NCBI GenBank assembly: GCA_017508425.1
Contig: JAFVYZ010000060.1
Span: forward strand, 13,252-77,251
DNA length: 64,000 nt
Direction: 5' to 3'
Source: Clostridia bacterium
GTDB lineage: Bacteria; Bacillota; Clostridia; Oscillospirales; CAG-272
This document shows, in pieces, positions 3,001-60,859 of the stretch (within the stretch, counting starts at the first letter, position 1; each line of letters begins with the position of its first letter). Below the pieces are notes generated by a model, which saw only the letters and a program-made list of their open reading frames with translations, was not told the DNA's origin and ran no database searches. The translations under genes were made by a program, and so were the position numbers.

Positions 3001-3321
3001 GCTCGACTCGATTGCGATGCTTTGAAGCGTAACGGTACCCGCCGCGACCGTAAATCGATTGCTTAACGTGATCTTTACCGAGTTTGTGCTACCCTTGATG
3101 GTGTAAGCCTTTGCCACGGAAAGCGTGGCAGATGTAACCGAAACGTTTTCTGTCACCGTGATCGTACCGCCGGAAGGAACGGCCGCAGCCGCCTCCTCGA
3201 GCGTAGCATATGTACTACTGCCCACGCTAAACGGCGAAGCGGCCGAGGCCGCAAGCGCGGTAAGCGTCAACAGCAGCAACGTCACGCACAAAAATAAAAT
3301 CGGACGAAGTTGTTTTTTCAT
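1..3321 (-). CDS. Large secreted protein of unknown function. The start is complete and the C-terminus is cut by the window edge (at least 1107 aa). It has a signal peptide followed by about 9 beta-helix-like G-G-T-F repeats.
   Basis: Absent from the ORF track because it has no stop inside the window. My minus-strand translation from ATG 3321 (RBS AAGGAGAA upstream) stays open to position 1, and the frame agrees at both ends. It begins MKKQLRPILFLCVTLLLLTLTALAASAASPF. Repeats include INGGTFY, VNGGTFD, ITNGTFKGG, VSGGTFS, VSGGLFN, ISNGTFLG, ISGGSFT, VTGGTFT and LSGGIFI. The plus-strand ORFs here are short antisense artefacts. Confidence 0.75.
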   Translation of the reverse strand, partial: MKKQLRPILFLCVTLLLLTLTALAASAASPFSVGSSTYATLEEAAAAVPSGGTITVTENVSVTSATLSVAKAYTIKGSTNSVKITLSNRFTVAAGTVTLQSIAIESSADYAIYVNGSSTTLNVKSGTTVRALTSSTTAITSGNKAKLNVDGGMIYGMIGVAPQPSSGPIITINGGTFYPNEAGVSEGKATHLVTASRAGTKLTVNGGTFDLTGVSSSGASAIVCNSESATVTITNGTFKGGTLEGQKLFGFYLGTFAVSGGTFSSSAPNGCIFYLESQMKPGKVLAPSLTVSGGLFNAKDTCRVMLVTGNYLENGQFVVTISNGTFLGSTVVEGVAMFEADAGQFEISGGSFTTKGSVLFDLALRKSIDDCFNVTGGTFTLESSTVMDCALIRTSVAVSLDELDKDNSKDPTSMYYASDVDISLSGGIFIDKRNSTSTMIDASIGSSKVIVGDAVLLSTYAKKMIVDGNDLLGADVAFAGNTVTVKYNNAQYYCYRKYEAITKNTYSPVMEAGAYVALTSAYNGIRFSSYIPASIVTKLTGRRYTMGTLIAPADYVASAGGFTHEKLTAWGASANVEIPYVDIVAKNSIENRTDGSISFSGALVDLNSYTRAYAAVSYVKYGSTYYYSTYRVEDNVRTMAYVSKMAYTATVEDGYESLYMPGAYSEYTEEEQQLLQTFSGYTAVRHTASVTPSTNIMFGDNAGANLQSKATALISTLTTYGYGSAGTPIFVGSKGTLATKALAKVEGYGYYIGVIDGTIVIAGSNDALTMQAVDVFSKLCRGGKISLTEIICSNADMVPLNAETPFVYSHTRDARAHNVFLYGTSHYTALGKNYAEISFNANLTHLYNKDTHNNSLGIDYPLLAALEIAGALLNADYEAGLAFTYVPDDLAVSGAAIYIGNTALTRINLLAGKDVGYYGYSVQDGKVFVGSYDDATLRLAKAMFIENLGDFALDTNGDGTADLYAIPADFRFEKGSSNGFTGDMSTLESQVGSDNYLSNELKNLVTNYPRPQNLSLSGAVSVSNGELELYYLNAKLSHYQNYCALLEENGYVAYMTEREIDGSFFVTYVNNQTGIMLHIIYNGYRWASVQNIDVSTDNTLDGMLTPT

Positions 3322-3391
3322 AAGCGTTCTCCTTTTCGGGGGGGAATAAAACACGGATGCACGATAAAAACCAACCATGAAATCCAAGAAT

Positions 3392-3420
3392 AGTATAACA
3401 AATATATTTGTTAATGTCAA
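3392..3420 (-). promoter_or_regulatory. Sigma-A type promoter for the large secreted protein gene
   Basis: Minus strand reads TTGACA, 17 nt, TGT-TATACT (extended -10), about 70 nt upstream of ATG 3321. Confidence 0.5.
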
Positions 3421-3484
3421 TTACAAGAGAAAAATTTCTACTTTTTTACCAAATGGCGCGCGCGAGTTTCGTGATTTTTAACAT

Positions 3485-3516
3485 CAAAAAAAGGCGATTT
3501 GGAATCGCCTTTTTTG
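3485..3516 (-). terminator. Intrinsic terminator after the GerA-family gene (bidirectional shape)
   Basis: AAGGCGATT / AATCGCCTT 9-bp stem flanked by an A-run and a T-run, 17 nt past the stop at 3533. Confidence 0.7.
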
Positions 3517-3532
3517 ATCTTCTGTACCGCGG

Positions 3533-4936
3533 TCAGGAGCTCTTTTTTCGTCGCACAAAAAGCGACAAAAGCGCCCTTGGCGAAAACGGGATCAGCGGAT
3601 AAAGATAGCTCCGTCCCCCATTGACCGTTTTGTTGGAGGCGATGAGGACGATAATGAGCAAAATGCCACCTAAAAATCCCCATAGATTGAAAAACGCCGT
3701 CAGAGTCAGGAGTAAAATACGCATAAATTTAAGCGCATAGCCAAGCTCAAAGCTCGTTTGCGTAAAATTGGCAATGGCAACGAACGCCATATATAAGATC
3801 ACCTCGGGGATCAGCCATCCCACATCGACCGCAAAGTCGCCAAGGATCAGCCCCCCCACGACGGATAAAGAATTTGCCAGCATATCAGGGGTATTCATAG
3901 AGGCCATGCGAAGTCCGTCTATCACAAATTCGGCCAAAAGCAGCTGCAAATAAATGGGCAGCTTCCCTCGATTTTCGGGCAATGCAAACGAAAGCCATTC
4001 GGGCACGTACTGAGGATTTAAAACCCCGAGGAACCAAACAGGAGTCATAAAAAGAGTAAGCCAAAATACAGTATGCCTCACGAGACGAAGATAGGTGCCC
4101 GTGAGGGGCGGAAGGTAAAAATCGCCACTTTCCTGTAGAAAATCAAAAATAGAGGTCGGCAAGATCATTGCCGCGGGAGAGTTATCAAGCAATACGATCA
4201 CGCTTCCCTCCAAAAGATGTGCCGAGGCGACGTCCGGACGCTCGGTATAACGAATCTTCGGAAAAGGATTATACCATCTCGTTTTAATAAGTGTTTCAGC
4301 CAGCGACTGGTGCCCCATCGTGAGGGCATCGGTTTGGATCGTGGCGATCTTATCCTTGATATATTTTACCGTTTTCGGATCGGCGCGATCACGCATATAA
4401 CAAATGACGATATCACTTTTTGAGGACTTGCCCATTGTCATATAGTGCATAGTGAGCTCCGCATCGCGAATGCGTCGCCGAACCAGTGCGGTATTAAAAA
4501 CGAGTGTTTCGACAAACCCATCACGCGGACCGCGCATCACACGATCGTTTTCGGGTTCAGCCGTTTCACGCGCAGGATAGGTTCGCGCGTCAATGATCAG
4601 CGCCTCGGCACCGAATGTGCTTCCCAAAAGAAGGGTCGCACCGGAAAGCACCATTTGCAGCATGAGATCGGTGTTCCCCGTCACATCGCTTTCAACGTAC
4701 GGCATATTGCTTTCAAGAAATTCCGTAGCACTTCCCGGCAAGGTCTTTAACCCGAGCAAATAGATAAACAGCTTTTGCAGGGATCCGTCCTTGATGAGAC
4801 CGTCAATATAAAAAAGTGTAAGCTCCTCCCGACCGATCTTCAGCACTTTTTTAATGACATCAAAATTTTCCCCCGCGCGCAGCGTTTCCTCAAAAAGTGA
4901 AACATTTTCGCGATAATTTTCTGTTAACGGTTGCAT
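3533..4936 (-). CDS. Spore germination protein, GerA family (GerAA/SpoVAF-like)
   Basis: 467 aa. N-terminal soluble domain (LTLFYIDGLIKDGSLQKL) plus C-terminal multi-TM region, typical of the GerA/SpoVAF family. No adjacent GerB/GerC partners. Confidence 0.8.
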   Translation of the reverse strand: MQPLTENYRENVSLFEETLRAGENFDVIKKVLKIGREELTLFYIDGLIKDGSLQKLFIYLLGLKTLPGSATEFLESNMPYVESDVTGNTDLMLQMVLSGATLLLGSTFGAEALIIDARTYPARETAEPENDRVMRGPRDGFVETLVFNTALVRRRIRDAELTMHYMTMGKSSKSDIVICYMRDRADPKTVKYIKDKIATIQTDALTMGHQSLAETLIKTRWYNPFPKIRYTERPDVASAHLLEGSVIVLLDNSPAAMILPTSIFDFLQESGDFYLPPLTGTYLRLVRHTVFWLTLFMTPVWFLGVLNPQYVPEWLSFALPENRGKLPIYLQLLLAEFVIDGLRMASMNTPDMLANSLSVVGGLILGDFAVDVGWLIPEVILYMAFVAIANFTQTSFELGYALKFMRILLLTLTAFFNLWGFLGGILLIIVLIASNKTVNGGRSYLYPLIPFSPRALLSLFVRRKKSS

Positions 4937-4991
4937 ATTTTACTCACCCCTCTTTTGGGTGTAGTATGCACCAAAATCTTGGACCATATGT

Positions 4992-56676: not shown

Positions 56677-56707
56677 AAAAATAACTGCCCGTACGGGCAG
56701 TTATTTT
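56677..56707 (-). terminator. Intrinsic terminator after the lipoprotein gene
   Basis: AAAATAACTGCCC-GTAC-GGGCAGTTATTTT. It overlaps the stop codon at 56706. Confidence 0.7.
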
Positions 56708-58207
56708 ACGATTCAAACGATAAGGGGGCGATCAAATAAGCAAAAATACCCTCGGTAGTAAAGGCATCAAGCTCCACCGCTTCAAGGAATGTGGCCTTCG
56801 CCGCCTTGGCGCGCTCGGCCACGGGTGCGATCCGTTGCTCGGTCACCGTAACAAGATTTACGTAATGCGGTGCCGGGGCCATTTCGGCCTTTTCCTTCAT
56901 CGAAAGAGAAAATTTAAAATCCACGGAAGCATCGCCGGATTTGACGCTGTCGATCGCAAAAACGAAGGCATCGTTCTCGCAAGAAAAACGGCCCGATACA
57001 GTTTTCACAGCACCGTTTTTGCCAAGCGTTAGGGTATAGGTATCCTCTTTTTTGAGAAGATCAAAGCGGCCCGATACAGTTTTGGGAGCGGCATCACCCA
57101 ACGCCCTATGATAGGTGTAGTCTGCCGTAAAGGTGCGCCAAGAATCCTTTTCAACGGCAACCGAAAGCGAGTGCTTTACGCCCTCAACAAGAAAGGAAAG
57201 CTCCAAATGATCTTTGGCTGAAAGGTCGATCGAAAAGGCGGTTGCATCCTCGCCGGATCTATGCGTAAGATCAAGATAAAGTAATTTGCCCGTTAGCTTT
57301 TTCACCGTGGCGTTCAACTCAAAGGTGAAGGGATCGGCTGCATCGATCTTGGCGCAAAGTGCCTCGATCTCTGCGCTGTTTGCCAGCCACGCCTCCACTT
57401 TATTGGTCCACTCGGAATACACCACGCCGGACAATGCCGATTGCATAGCATCGCGGGTCCGAGCCACCTCGCGCGCACGGCGCACAAGAGTCTTATCCTT
57501 CACGGCTGTCGCCCACGTATCGCGCAGGGCGCGGGAAAGCATCGTATTATCTACCGAAAGATAAACCTTGACCTTCCCCTTTTCACTGTAACGCGAAATA
57601 CCAGCATATTCCGTAAGGTTTTTTAAGAAAATTTCTACGTACTTATCGAGCATATCGGGGGTATCCTCCAATGCACCGAAAAGCGTATAAAATCCATCCA
57701 CCCATGTCAAGATGGCGGCGGCGGTGCTTTCATTGATCTTTTCCTCGGCGTAAGCCGTTCCGCTGCCGTTGATAAAGATCGAATGCGATATGTCATTTTT
57801 GAGTGTATTAAAATCAACACCAAGCGTGGTGGAGCCCAACAGCGCATCCGAGGTGAGCACGGCACGGTCCTCTGAAAACCAAAGCTTGGCATCAAAATTC
57901 TTTTCACCCGCACGAAGCAACGATTCGGCCGTGATCTCACGCGCCTCAGCATCAAAGCCGAGCGAGAGATCAAGGGCGTTGACACCGCCAAGGGTATGCC
58001 CCCCGACACCGAGAGATCCAGCGTCCCCTCGCCAAGAGAGGATAACACGACCGAGAGCACCTCGCCGAGCACCGAACGCTCAATTGTGCGTTCGAGAGAG
58101 GATTTGACATAAGAGAGCGGTCGCTTGTGCGATGCACACCCGGCAAGGGGAGCAACGACCAAGCAAAGTGCCAATATCAGGCACAGTGTTTTTACAATAT
58201 GCTTCAC
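56706..58207 (-). pseudogene. Lipoprotein of unknown function (about 500 aa if repaired), frameshifted in a G6 run
   Basis: ORF 57707..58207 begins with a lipobox signal peptide (LILALCLVVAPLAGCAS). Protein-like sequence continues in the frame of ORF 56706..57920; my upstream extension of that frame reads ...TLGGVNALDLSLGFDAEAREITAESLLRAGEKNF. The frames switch at the C6/G6 homopolymer at 57999..58004. Confidence 0.7.
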
Positions 58208-58383
58208 GGAAAACTCCTTAGATATATATTATACCGCTTATATTATAAAGCAGGTTTGAAAAAATGTCAATCGGCAGGAACCGATAAATTTTTACCTTCC
58301 TCCTCATAATAGCAATTTTAGCGCGACTACGATCCCCTTTTTTGCGTCAAAAAAACATTTTGCAAAAATATTTTAAAAACCCC

Positions 58384-58413
58384 TTGACAACAAGGGGCTT
58401 CATTTGCTATAAT
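58384..58413 (+). promoter_or_regulatory. Near-consensus sigma-A promoter for tRNA-Thr
   Basis: TTGACA, 18 nt, TATAAT, 28 nt upstream of the tRNA 5' end. Confidence 0.55.
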
Positions 58414-58441
58414 ATCAAGCGTCGCCGCATATTGCGGTCGT

Positions 58442-58517
58442 GCTGCTATAGCTCAGTCGGTAGAGCACGTCATTGGTAATGACGAGGTCATCGGTCCGAA
58501 TCCGATTAGCAGCTCCA
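58442..58517 (+). tRNA. tRNA-Thr (anticodon GGU) with encoded CCA
   Basis: Hand-folded cloverleaf: acceptor GCTGCTA/TAGCAGC, D arm GCTC-AGTCGGTA-GAGC, anticodon arm CGTCA-TTGGTAA-TGACG, variable loop AGGTC, T arm ATCGG-TCCGAAT-CCGAT, then discriminator T and CCA. Confidence 0.9.
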
Positions 58518-58520
58518 TAC

Positions 58521-58551
58521 AAAAAACCCCGCCAGTCGGCGGGGTTTTTTG
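58521..58551 (+). terminator. Intrinsic terminator after tRNA-Thr
   Basis: CCCCGCC-AGTC-GGCGGGG followed by TTTTTT. Confidence 0.8.
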
Positions 58552-58553
58552 TA

Positions 58554-58686
58554 TGCTGCCGCTTCTCGGGACGAGGAGCGATATGGAAGGTGCTGCCAAA
58601 ATTTTAAACTTTTATACCCAAAGGCGCACCTTCCCACGTCGCCATCGGCGACGGAAACGGTCACGAATCCGATTAGCAGCTCCATA
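58554..58686 (+). repeat. tRNA-Thr-derived structured unit 2. It has tRNA-like 5' GCTGC and 3' ...CGAATCCGATTAGCAGCTCCA ends with a roughly 105-nt internal insert.
   Basis: The last 21 nt are identical to the tRNA 3' end including CCA. Internal hairpins: 58561-58579; 58585-58593 paired with 58626-58634; 58638-58652. It shares CGATATGGAAG and ACGGTCACGAATCCGATT with unit 3. Confidence 0.6.
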
Positions 58687-58687
58687 A

Positions 58688-58724
58688 AGAAAACCGTCAC
58701 CCAATCGGGTGGCGGTTTTCTTTA
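58688..58724 (+). terminator. Intrinsic terminator after unit 2
   Basis: AAACCGTCACCC-AATC-GGGTGGCGGTTT (one G-U pair) followed by TCTTT. Confidence 0.65.
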
Positions 58725-58830
58725 TGCGGCCAATCGATAAAGGGACCGATATGGAAGCCGCCCACACCTCACGGGCGGCTTTCTACAAGCGAAGCTTGTG
58801 GACGGTCACGAATCCGATTTGGCGTATGCT
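58724..58830 (+). repeat. tRNA-Thr-derived structured unit 3, more diverged and without CCA
   Basis: Shares CGATATGGAAG (58747-58757) and ACGGTCACGAATCCGATT (58802-58819) with unit 2. Hairpins at 58755-58763 paired with 58773-58781, and at 58785-58799. The ends GCCAA and TTGGC are complementary. Confidence 0.55.
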
Positions 58831-58836
58831 ATCCTT

Positions 58837-58866
58837 AAAAAAACGGACCTCGGTCCGTTTTTTTGT
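58837..58866. terminator. Bidirectional terminator after unit 3 and the GH115-like gene
   Basis: ACGGAC-CTCG-GTCCGT with an A7 run on the left and a T7 run on the right. Confidence 0.75.
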
Positions 58867-58873
58867 TATTCCC

Positions 58874-60859
58874 TTACACCTTTGCGATGGGATCGTGCTG
58901 GCACAGCTCGCGAATGCGCTCAGCCACGGAAAGGCGGATGTCAAACTTATACCAGTTATGCCACTTGCCACACTGAAATTCCTTGCGCTTTTTGTAGATC
59001 TCAAGCAAGCAATCAATGGCTTGCGTGCGGTTTTGCTCAACGTTGTTTCCAAGGCACATTTCGGTCACGCAAAGTGCGCGCTTTGTTAAAAGAATCATGA
59101 GCTCGCACTGATAGATCTTGGCAAATCGAAAATGCTCGTGTGCATTTTCGGGGATTTGCGCCTCAGCATCATAAAGCCTCGGCAGGAGAGCCTCATATTT
59201 CACCAAGCTCTCCTGTAGCACACGGCGGAAATGGTGGAAATTCTCGGCGTTTTCGGTATATACCGCGCCCTGCTTTCTCCACCACGCGCCGATCAGCCAC
59301 GAGGGGGCGCGCATCAGCGTGCCGTCCGTGAGAGGATAGTACGGGAACGGCAGGTCGCCGGGATCGTAGAAGTAAAAATCACGGTAAGAAAGGATCTCGT
59401 TGCCCATCCTCACGCCAAGGTCACCGATGGCGTCAAAATAAGCACGCTCAAGCTCCGCCACAACGGGTGCGGCATCTCCCCAAACGGTGGGATAGACGGT
59501 CTTATAATAGTTGTCAAGTGAAAACGTAGTGGGATCAGTGCCGAGAAGCGCGACGTTCAGGCGGATCGAGCTGCAAAGCTCACGCACGTTGGCGACGTTC
59601 AGGACCGAAAAATAAAGAGAATCGCGCGAGGCAAGCTCCTGGTAGCAATACACCATTTTACGGGGATCGGTGCCGTCGGTATAGTGCGGTCCCTCCGCGA
59701 AGAAGCCTGCGTGGTAATATACGCCGTATTTCACGCCCTCTCGGCGCGTAACGCGATAGAAATCGCCGCCGAGCATTTGCGTGTCACCCACGTCGCTAAA
59801 GACGACGACGGTATCGCTTGGCAGCTCCAAACATCCACGATCGTAAAGCTCCGCGCCCTCGCACCACAGCGTGGTGGTGGAAAGAAAATCGGTGTGCCCG
59901 AGCGCCTCGGTGATCAAGCGGTACTGTGTTGCGATCGCCCCCGAAAGGAGTGTACCGCGTGCCTCGGGGGTATCGCCGACGCTGCTGTCGCTGCGCCACA
60001 CGGCAATATCACCGTCTCCGCGAAGTCCGATCTGCCAGATAACGTTTTTGCCGTATTTTGCCCATTTCTGCACGTAGGTGCGCCATACCTCCTCCATTTC
60101 CCTTGGGCTTTGAACGAAGGATACCGCCTTGGAGGGATACCTCTGCCTCATATAGCGCTGTGCGGCGTAATGCCCAACGCCCACGGGCTCTTGGTGATGC
60201 TGAGATACGTAAAGCCCTCTTTTTACCGCCGCCGCCACGATCGCCTCATCGGCGGGATTCAGGATATCGAGATAGGTTGCGGGAATGATCAAATTCATTT
60301 CAAGACGCAGCGCCGCCTCGTAAATACGGTCCATCATTGAAAGCGAGATCACCTCTCGAAAGAAACGCGTATTGTTTCCAACGTCACGCAAAGCACCGCT
60401 TGGAGCGTACCCCGAAAGAAAATCCTCATCGTTGATAAACCACCCACGGAAGCGGCAGGTATATTGCTTGGCAACGAATCGCCCCTGTGGGAGCGAGAGC
60501 GCAGGGACCGTTTTGGGCGTAATATCGGTAAAGAAATAAAGCGGATCCATACCGAGGCACTTGGTTGAAAAGGCATAAATGCCAAAGACCGTACCAAGCG
60601 CATCAAAGCCGACGATCCGCGCGCCCTGCTCGCTGACCTCAACCGTATAGCCCTCGGGGAAGGCGCAGGCACAGCACGTGCCGGTTTCGATCACGATCGC
60701 AGGAGCATCATCTCCCGTAACGATATCAAACCCCTCACTTTTCCCCGATACGAGAAGGAGGTCGCGGCGCAGGTCGGCGGCGGCAAGCACGACGCAGGGC
60801 TCTGCATCGGCAGGCAGCACAATATTTACGGTATTCCTACCGGAAAACAATTCAAACAT
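58874..60859 (-). CDS. Cytoplasmic glycoside-hydrolase-like protein, possibly GH115 (alpha-glucuronidase-like)
   Basis: 661 aa with no signal peptide. The N-terminal GFDALGTVFGIYAF module and FRGWFINDEDF resemble GH115/GH67-type architecture. This assignment is from memory only. Confidence 0.45.
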   Translation of the reverse strand: MFELFSGRNTVNIVLPADAEPCVVLAAADLRRDLLLVSGKSEGFDIVTGDDAPAIVIETGTCCACAFPEGYTVEVSEQGARIVGFDALGTVFGIYAFSTKCLGMDPLYFFTDITPKTVPALSLPQGRFVAKQYTCRFRGWFINDEDFLSGYAPSGALRDVGNNTRFFREVISLSMMDRIYEAALRLEMNLIIPATYLDILNPADEAIVAAAVKRGLYVSQHHQEPVGVGHYAAQRYMRQRYPSKAVSFVQSPREMEEVWRTYVQKWAKYGKNVIWQIGLRGDGDIAVWRSDSSVGDTPEARGTLLSGAIATQYRLITEALGHTDFLSTTTLWCEGAELYDRGCLELPSDTVVVFSDVGDTQMLGGDFYRVTRREGVKYGVYYHAGFFAEGPHYTDGTDPRKMVYCYQELASRDSLYFSVLNVANVRELCSSIRLNVALLGTDPTTFSLDNYYKTVYPTVWGDAAPVVAELERAYFDAIGDLGVRMGNEILSYRDFYFYDPGDLPFPYYPLTDGTLMRAPSWLIGAWWRKQGAVYTENAENFHHFRRVLQESLVKYEALLPRLYDAEAQIPENAHEHFRFAKIYQCELMILLTKRALCVTEMCLGNNVEQNRTQAIDCLLEIYKKRKEFQCGKWHNWYKFDIRLSVAERIRELCQHDPIAKV

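Follow-up and report, generated by a model that had tools for sequence, protein, structure and literature searches.

What are the two repeated units, each capped by a terminator, that follow the only transfer RNA (tRNA) gene in a 64-kb stretch of Clostridia DNA, and how did they come to stand there? The stretch, referred to below as the window, comprises 64,000 nucleotides (nt) of contig JAFVYZ010000060.1 (assembly GCA_017508425.1, positions 13,252 to 77,251) from a Clostridia bacterium, and its single tRNA gene encodes tRNA-Thr(GGU) (ARAGORN; Rfam 71 bits; Table 1). An earlier note, made from the sequence alone, had described two further units behind this gene, here called unit 2 and unit 3, and had interpreted them as a selected RNA fold derived from the 3' half of the tRNA. 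The explanation that we favor, at a probability of roughly one half, is that both units belong to a lineage-restricted, tRNA-derived structured family originating from tRNA-Thr(GGU) and its terminator, and that they are predicted to be transcribed when polymerase reads through from the tRNA promoter. Judged from its sequences, the family is real, previously undescribed and lineage-restricted; it is of the RtT type in layout, after the repeats of the E. coli tyrT locus, and stands outside the RtT family.

Architecture of the modules

The elements located 3' of tRNA-Thr(GGU) follow one another in the order T1, unit 2, T2, unit 3 and T3, with each unit flanked on both sides by a terminator hairpin. 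Sequence and fold bear out that the two units end in terminators of their own (T2 and T3). The span first given for unit 2 (58554-58686) needed correction, as the unit starts at 58555, 5 nt past T1, and its CCA ends at 58684. Its GCTGC start and its copy of the tRNA 3' end are present as described, the 21-mer CGAATCCGATTAGCAGCTCCA occurring both at 58497-58517 in the tRNA and at 58664-58684 in unit 2. The 3'-terminal 27 nt of this unit correspond to the last 26 nt of the tRNA (CGGTC to CCA) with one A inserted in the T-loop; besides this A, the 3' block shared by the two units differs from the tRNA by two changes in the 5' strand of the T-stem, and the 6-nt deletion previously invoked for this block is not needed. 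Unit 3 retains the tRNA 3' end only up to CCGATT. On sequence identity, the tRNA-Thr origin of the 3' 26 nt is clear. Beyond them, homology to the whole tRNA is only suggestive (GTCGGTA in the D-loop and CACGTC in the anticodon stem, with p about 0.01-0.2), and the proposed derivation from the tRNA 3' half is thus clear only for the terminal part.

The two blocks shared by the units are absent from the rest of the window: ACGGTCACGAATCCGATT is found at 58657 and 58802 only, even allowing three mismatches (0.05 expected), and exact copies of CGATATGGAAG are found at 58579 and 58747 only. Hairpins of unrelated sequence occupy equivalent positions in both units, with the stems GGAAGGTGC/GCACCTTCC, GTCGCC/GGCGAC, (GG)AAGCCGCCC/GGGCGGCTT(TC) and ACAAGC/GCTTGT; these stems and the differing closing pairs lie where they had been placed before, and all form in the minimum free energy (MFE) folds. 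Compared with shuffled sequences, the folds of the two units reach z = -5.9 and -4.7. The general plan of a module, about 105-130 nt in length, consists of the 5' block GGA(G/C)CGAT(AT)G, the helices H2, H3 and H4, the T-arm-derived block ACGGTCACGAATCCGATT and the terminator hairpin, with the conserved GGAAG forming the base of the long hairpin. Many copies add the acceptor 3' strand of the tRNA and UCCA. Unit 2 of the window is a hybrid that combines five closing pairs with H2.

Distribution in related genomes

An exact scan with the 18-mer ACGGTCACGAATCCGATT over one genome per species (185,579 species) returned 65 loci, 10 of which have the full unit architecture, all of them in metagenome-assembled genomes (MAGs) of Clostridia/Eubacteriales/Oscillospiraceae; about 50 of the 65 were chance matches, including those to a conserved coding region of Solirubrobacterales. 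In all 10 unit loci, a tRNA-Thr(GGU) gene lies a few hundred nt or less upstream on the same strand. The query contained neither the 5' block nor the hairpins nor any requirement for a nearby tRNA, which makes these features independent confirmation. Scanning JGI metagenomes with a two-block pattern yielded one true locus, that of the close relative L098 (related loci are designated by L numbers), while the remaining 25 matches were chance matches in coding sequence. Eleven syntenic loci with gene calls were obtained through the ValRS neighbor (P0001), for which a 100% identical protein is labelled 'MAG: Clostridia bacterium'. Among the syntenic loci, L102, L103/L108 and L107 bear units, including variants of the 3' block, L099 carries a truncated unit, and L100, L101, L104 and L105 have the tRNA and a terminator with no unit; L109 lacks the tRNA, as does L106, which has a T-box-like valS leader.

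A covariance model built from 16 units (R1) identified 21 units in 13 genomes at E<1e-6 and, across the window and 22 loci, no copy at any other site. Units are present in about 13 related Clostridia/Oscillospiraceae MAGs, always directly downstream of tRNA-Thr(GGU), in arrays with anywhere between none and three or more complete units, which also include truncated and variant modules. The full CCA end is found in 7 of the 16 aligned units. The earlier note had suggested searching related genomes for homologous units and covariation; the units are there, and alignments of 16 and 21 of them could be analyzed. Recurrence in about 13 other genomes confirms that the unit architecture is beyond chance.

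Further module types ending in CGAATCC(GATT) occur in L038 (1640-1870) and L107 (about 3130-3340, minus strand), in which the only stem left is H3-like (GGAAGAT...ATCTTCC) and branched inside, H4 and ACGGTCA being absent. At positions 4416-4640 (minus strand) of L102, two units run into each other without an intervening terminator, and the last T-block has turned into a hairpin (ACGGTCGTCGGATCCGACCGTTTT), apparently the sole terminator of that array. In L107, a 235-amino-acid (aa) Pfam-less 'gene' was called across the tRNA and the unit array (3075-3782, minus strand) and is almost certainly spurious.

Conservation of base pairing

In a plain MAFFT alignment of 16 units, 90% of the H3 pairs and 95% of the H4 pairs form; none of 500 column shuffles matched the observed covariation, and slid controls gave 34-47%. 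The model-fitted alignment of 21 units from 13 genomes, which leans towards its model, raises these values to 97.9% (H3) and 98.4% (H4), with two-sided changes at five pairs of H3 and six pairs of H4 and at most three pair types per position. For H2, the D-like hairpin of the earlier note, whose pairs were counted by script and whose gaps are misplaced by MAFFT, 71 of the 72 pairs form in eight alpha-type units, with compensatory changes at five positions; a polymorphism of the 5' block is mirrored in the opposite strand, GGAGCG occurring with CGCTCC and GGACCG with CGGTCC. An inner helix, P2 (GA(G/C)CG with CGGTC), was considered and rejected, being perfect only in GGACCG-type units, competing with H2 and having a G.G mismatch in the majority form.

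In the beta-type units (L022, L046, L049, L060 and L107U1), the 5' strand of H2 is absent. They start with GCTG(C/T)T(A/G)(A/G)TCGG, the complement of CCGATTAGCAGC, and are predicted to form a closing helix of 12-13 bp with a free UCCA tail, visible in the folds of L049, L060 and L046; beta-type folds lie well below those of shuffled sequences. Subtypes differ in whether they use the closing helix or H2, and the acceptor-like helix with CCA spans 12-13 bp in beta-type units and 5 bp in unit 2 of the window, with unrelated pairs in its place in unit 3. Loops measure 9-33 nt in H3 and 2-5 nt in H4. The T-like hairpin has 3 bp, an A.A mismatch and the 8-nt loop UCACGAAU, and varies in the synteny-found L102 and L103; its pairs are all invariant or mismatched, which makes it uninformative either way.

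The stems contain 25 G.U versus 8 A.C pairs, and the 5' strand of the closing helix varies mostly through wobble-compatible transitions; the excess of G.U over A.C points to RNA of the plus strand. Selection for pairing, which had been proposed from stems that change in sequence and remain complementary, is supported by the covariation of H3 and H4 and by the near-complete pairing of H2.

Comparison with RtT and other tRNA-like RNAs

The closest known system, on sequence comparison an analogue and not a homologue, is RtT, the tyrT repeats of E. coli, which the earlier note did not name. In the MG1655 annotation, tyrT and tyrV are accompanied by the small RNA rttR, inside which lies tpr ('protamine-like protein'). 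With the Rfam model RF00391, the tyrT/tyrV locus contains four copies of 133-138 bits at a 178-nt period; every copy terminates with AATCCTTCCCCCACCACCA, identical to the 19 nt at the 3' end of tRNA-Tyr, and the 3' strand of the consensus closing helix is the T-stem 3' strand. According to a passage in PMC3318445, which cites Bosl and Kersten 1991, rttR is one repeat unit of the tyrT operon, and the mode of action of RtT RNA is still described as unknown (10.1101/2024.07.17.603846).

Both systems are tandem repeats of about 170-180 nt directly behind a co-oriented tRNA gene, in which the repeat ends in the last ~20 nt of the tRNA from T-loop to CCA (19 nt in E. coli, 21 nt in unit 2), a closing helix that uses the T-stem/acceptor 3' strand encloses internal hairpins, and one copy is overlapped by an arginine-rich open reading frame (ORF). 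They differ in the tRNA and lineage concerned (tRNA-Tyr in Enterobacteria, tRNA-Thr in Clostridia), in their internal stems, which are unlike, and in that each Clostridia unit has its own intrinsic terminator hairpin, whereas none is seen between the E. coli copies in sequence. Moreover, the E. coli repeat was detected as an RNA product, as reported in the same passage (PMC3318445, citing Bosl and Kersten 1991), while the Clostridia units are known from sequence alone. RF00391 gave no match at E<=10 on 58300-58950 of the window, where its gathering threshold of 45 bits was not reached, and no match at E<=1 on a beta-type unit of L049.

Beta-type units also resemble tRNA itself: their 12-13 bp closing helix has the length of the 7+5 bp acceptor/T stack, and G1-C72, C2-G71, the U73 discriminator and CCA are retained, while the 3' half of the T-loop (CGAAU) is present in the units in general. 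In contrast to tRNA, the units have no anticodon loop, D-stem or G3.U70, and they carry an 8-nt T-loop and an A.A pair in the T-stem. ARAGORN and the Rfam tRNA and tmRNA models did not detect the units as tRNA, calling only 58442-58517. With no anticodon loop and a T-like hairpin of 3 bp, the class-II tRNA-like topology suggested earlier does not hold. A search for known families with Rfam (gathering threshold; E<=10) returned only the tRNA and weak, terminator-like matches to the terminator parts of leader and small-RNA models. In the literature, we found no description of tRNA-Thr-linked repeats in Clostridia.

Copy-number dynamics

The closest relative, L098, has the order tRNA-T2-unit 3, its T2-equivalent hairpin lying directly 3' of the tRNA, and the window exceeds it by exactly one 167-nt period, made up of T1 and unit 2 and bounded by the 21-nt repeat. 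In the window the array repeats at 167/145 nt, compared with 165-170 nt for L046, L049 and L060. Perfect or near-perfect direct repeats of 62 nt (L049) and 84 nt (L060), spaced 165-170 nt apart, span the T-loop, the CCA and the terminator and extend into the start of the next unit. Truncated terminal units are found in L046, L060, L099 and L042, and hairpin types common to several genomes are reshuffled between them. Whole-period differences, long repeats, truncated ends and reshuffling form the pattern expected of tandem-repeat recombination rather than of attL/attR sites, and unequal or homologous recombination between the repeats is the probable cause of the changes in copy number.

Alternative explanations

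The note itself had offered an alternative in which the units are stacked att-site scars: elements targeting the T-loop-to-3' end of tRNA-Thr came and went, leaving tRNA 3' ends together with element-end sequence. Integration commonly leaves partial tRNA copies in prokaryotes; in the published pattern, an element of 9-121 kb has a complete tRNA copy at one end and a partial one at the other (10.1101/2022.07.05.498093). The locus is similar in that its direct repeat is the tRNA 3' portion from T-loop to CCA: the 21-nt repeat (58497, 58664) begins in the T-loop, as is typical of a tRNA att core, and bounds the one module that L098 lacks, and several module types all end in CGAATCC(GATT). However, these repeats lie only 167 nt apart, without integrase or cargo, extend through the terminator and have covarying hairpins between them. 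The window flanks contain neither integrase nor cargo nor island, in agreement with the note, and inspection of the 11 gene-called syntenic loci revealed no integrase, other recombinase family, cargo or integrated element. The 18-mer scan showed no unit parted from its tRNA by an island; IMG/VR scans and phage and plasmid BLAST of a 501-nt region gave nothing beyond the tRNA, the IMG/VR scans with both conserved blocks yielding chance or coding matches only, including two gene starts with a Shine-Dalgarno (SD) sequence and ATG. In every genome the unit starts directly next to the terminator U-run, a constant junction that random internal deletions would not yield, compensatory changes occur in the sequence between the repeats, and the extension of the repeats for 62-84 nt through the terminator indicates tandem duplication rather than attL/attR. 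The scar explanation is disfavored and appears very unlikely. Alternatively, the ~167-nt module (terminator plus unit) could be a non-autonomous mini-cassette, moved at the tRNA T-arm by a recombinase encoded elsewhere, with the hairpins acting as recognition structures in double- or single-stranded DNA. This would account for gain and loss in exact periods, for mosaic hairpin types shuffled between genomes and for the inverted repeats CCGATT/AATCGG at module borders and terminator loops, some with 6-8 bp spacers. Yet no recombinase was identified in the window flanks or the gene-called loci, homologous recombination between the 62-84 nt repeats suffices for gain and loss, the bias of G.U over A.C indicates RNA from one strand, and the 18-mer scan and the R1 search never placed a cassette at another site, which leaves this mechanism distinctly improbable.

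The array could also be a by-product, in which the tRNA 3' end and its terminator were tandemly duplicated and kept as a multi-terminator insulator between a strong promoter and the neighboring genes, the hairpins being maintained or regenerated by template switching with no discrete RNA role. Three consecutive bidirectional terminators, a perfect promoter, the dispensability of the units in relatives and the frequency of truncated copies are consistent with this idea. It fits less well with the persistence of the non-stem blocks GGAGCGATATG and ACGGTCACGAATCC across genomes while stems diverge, with three separate hairpins that hold their position with many pair types, and with the L102 units that have no terminator between them; we consider it unlikely. 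Finally, the motif GAGGAGCGATATG, which resembles an SD sequence followed by ATG, raises the question of small peptides comparable to E. coli tpr. Nearly every unit has the SD-like motif with ATG, the E. coli annotation places tpr within rttR, and in unit 2 the ATG opens a 34-aa arginine-rich ORF (MEGAAKILNFYTQRRTFPRRHRRRKRSRIRLAAP, 58583-58687) whose TAA directly follows the CCA. Nevertheless, ORFs from that ATG range from 5 to 85 aa and cross the 3' block in all three frames, no sequence is shared past the first 2-3 residues, other units lack a conserved counterpart of the unit 2 ORF, and the SD is sequestered in H2 while the ATG abuts H3. With neither frames nor lengths conserved among units, the coding hypothesis was rejected as extremely improbable.

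Proposed origin and expression of the RNA family

The preferred explanation remains a tRNA-derived structured RNA family, whose modules would have arisen out of the adjacent tRNA-Thr(GGU) gene and its terminator. Transcription would take place by read-through from the very strong tRNA promoter, the sole plus-strand promoter-like site upstream of the units (58384-58413), which is kept in all related loci; read-through is proposed because no promoter fits between a terminator U-run and the next unit, and because the wobble pairs favor the plus strand. Where a copy has the 12-13 bp closing helix and the UCCA tail, it looks like a tRNA acceptor/T minihelix and is probably cut out by the tRNA maturation machinery, with RNase P acting on the 5' side and CCA-end trimming on the 3' side; release of this kind is reported for RtT RNA in E. 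coli, where the precursor is the tyrT transcript. As a best guess, the product may mimic tRNA and act as a regulatory or decoy RNA linked to the supply of tRNA-Thr.

Several observations weigh against this explanation. The units are related by descent, which makes independent compensatory events fewer than the cell counts, and template switching at the DNA level can also maintain perfect palindromes. The acceptor/CCA part is absent from about half of the units, including unit 3 of the window, and therefore the minihelix processing step cannot be universal. The units are dispensable, since they are absent in the close relatives L100, L101, L104 and L105, and the many copies that are truncated or mosaic give the impression of decay. 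The invariance of the 3' block is partly a matter of ascertainment, this block having been the search key, and the strong-looking terminator before every unit suggests that read-through may be low.

Genomic context and feature positions

T1, T2 and T3 each show, by eye and in the folds, 7-9 GC-rich pairs followed by 4-7 U, the pattern of putative intrinsic terminators; a simple pattern scanner of terminators listed none of the three, probably because the stems run on through the A/U tracts. The T2 loop (58700-58707), CCAATCGG, is kept across genomes and is complementary to CCGATT. Likewise, in most related loci the terminator loop is CCAATCGG with few exceptions, a sequence complementary to CCGATT(GG) of the T-stem 3' strand, and the terminator palindrome reaches outward with CTCCATAA pairing TTATGGAG, by which the tRNA CCA end can be sequestered. 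T3 also terminates the convergent GH115-like gene (58874-60859, minus strand).

The tRNA-Thr(GGU) sequence is identical at 76/76 positions across about 20 related loci, except in L098, which has a T-loop substitution. Position 55 of tRNA is almost universally U (pseudouridine); the T-loop of this tRNA (58495-58501) is TCCGAAT, with C at position 55, and that of L098 is CCCGAAT.

The genes flanking the array in the window encode SbcCD, two Pfam-less ORFs, the GH115-like protein and ValRS. Two promoters with 12/12 consensus matches diverge, one at 58242-58270 (minus strand) upstream of a minus-strand gene and the other at 58384-58413 (plus strand) upstream of the tRNA. The region 56706-58207 (minus strand) contains two overlapping Pfam-less ORFs of 404 aa and 166 aa, which may reflect a frameshift or a mis-called start; relatives have two Pfam-less genes of ~500 aa. 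Only in the window and L098 is the array separated from valS by the GH115-like gene, an exact-protein look-up of which gave no result. In most relatives, the array is directly followed by valS with its own promoter, and L033 has a different intervening gene. The valS leader of this clade is short and has no T-box, while the more distant L106 (about 4890-4960) has a T-box-like GGTGGTACCGCG motif upstream of valS.

Table 1. Positions of the tRNA-Thr(GGU) gene, its predicted promoter and the downstream array in the window
Feature	Position	Strand	Basis and remarks
Sigma-70 promoter, TTGACA-18-TATAAT with TG	58384..58413	+	12/12 consensus match; predicted to drive tRNA-Thr
tRNA-Thr(GGU), CCA encoded	58442..58517	+	ARAGORN, Rfam; source of the 3' sequence reused in the units
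Terminator hairpin T1, AAAAAACCCCGCC-AGTC-GGCGGGGTTTTTT	58521..58550	+	Sequence, fold, weak Rfam matches to terminator parts of leader families
Unit 2, full module	58555..58684	+	Fold, blocks; covariance model R1 116.5 bits
Unit 2 closing pairs, GCTGC / GCAGC	58555-59 / 58676-80	+	Sequence and MFE fold
Unit 2 H2	58560-58580	+	Sequence and fold
Unit 2 conserved 5' block	58575-58589	+	Shared with unit 3
Unit 2 H3	58585-58634	+	Sequence and fold
Unit 2 H4	58637-58653	+	Sequence and fold
Unit 2 conserved 3' block	58657-58674	+	Shared with unit 3
Unit 2 copy of tRNA 3' end, 21 nt including CCA	58664-58684	+	Identity 21/21
Terminator hairpin T2, AAAGAAAACCGTCACCC-AATC-GGGTGGCGGTTTTCTTT	58686..58723	+	Sequence, fold, related genomes
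Unit 3, shorter module without acceptor/CCA	about 58725..58827	+	Fold; R1 83.9 bits; ortholog in L098
Unit 3 closing pairs, GCCAA / TTGGC	58729-33 / 58819-23	+	Sequence and MFE fold
Unit 3 5' block, GGACCGATATGGAAG	58743-58757	+	Shared with unit 2
Unit 3 H3, 11 bp	58753-58783	+	Sequence and fold
Unit 3 H4	58785-58799	+	Sequence and fold
Unit 3 3' block	58802-58819	+	Shared with unit 2
Terminator hairpin T3, AAAAAAACGGACC-TCGG-GGTCCGTTTTTTT	58837..58864		Sequence, fold; bidirectional

Biological significance

To our knowledge, E. coli RtT is the only other known structured repeat RNA that is derived from a tRNA gene and trails it. An unrelated family with the same plan, attached to another tRNA in another phylum, suggests a repeatedly selected design and provides a comparative handle on what tRNA-trailer RNAs do. 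In addition, an uncultured clade of gut and rumen Clostridia gains a candidate non-coding RNA family whose three helices covary and whose covariance model is ready for use. For annotation, the family carries a warning, illustrated by the almost certainly spurious call across the L107 array; in the same way, tRNA 3' repeats of this kind could be mistaken for island boundaries. Going further, and as a rather doubtful proposal, the modules could represent a second, independently evolved class of tRNA-trailer mimic RNA convergent with RtT, combining a minihelix cap, a variable three-hairpin body, maturation by RNase P and at the CCA end, possible recognition or charging by ThrRS, and a decoy or sensor function that would couple tRNA-Thr supply to a cellular response. 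If this were true, a tRNA gene followed by tRNA-mimic repeats would be a recurrent bacterial design rather than an oddity of E. coli.

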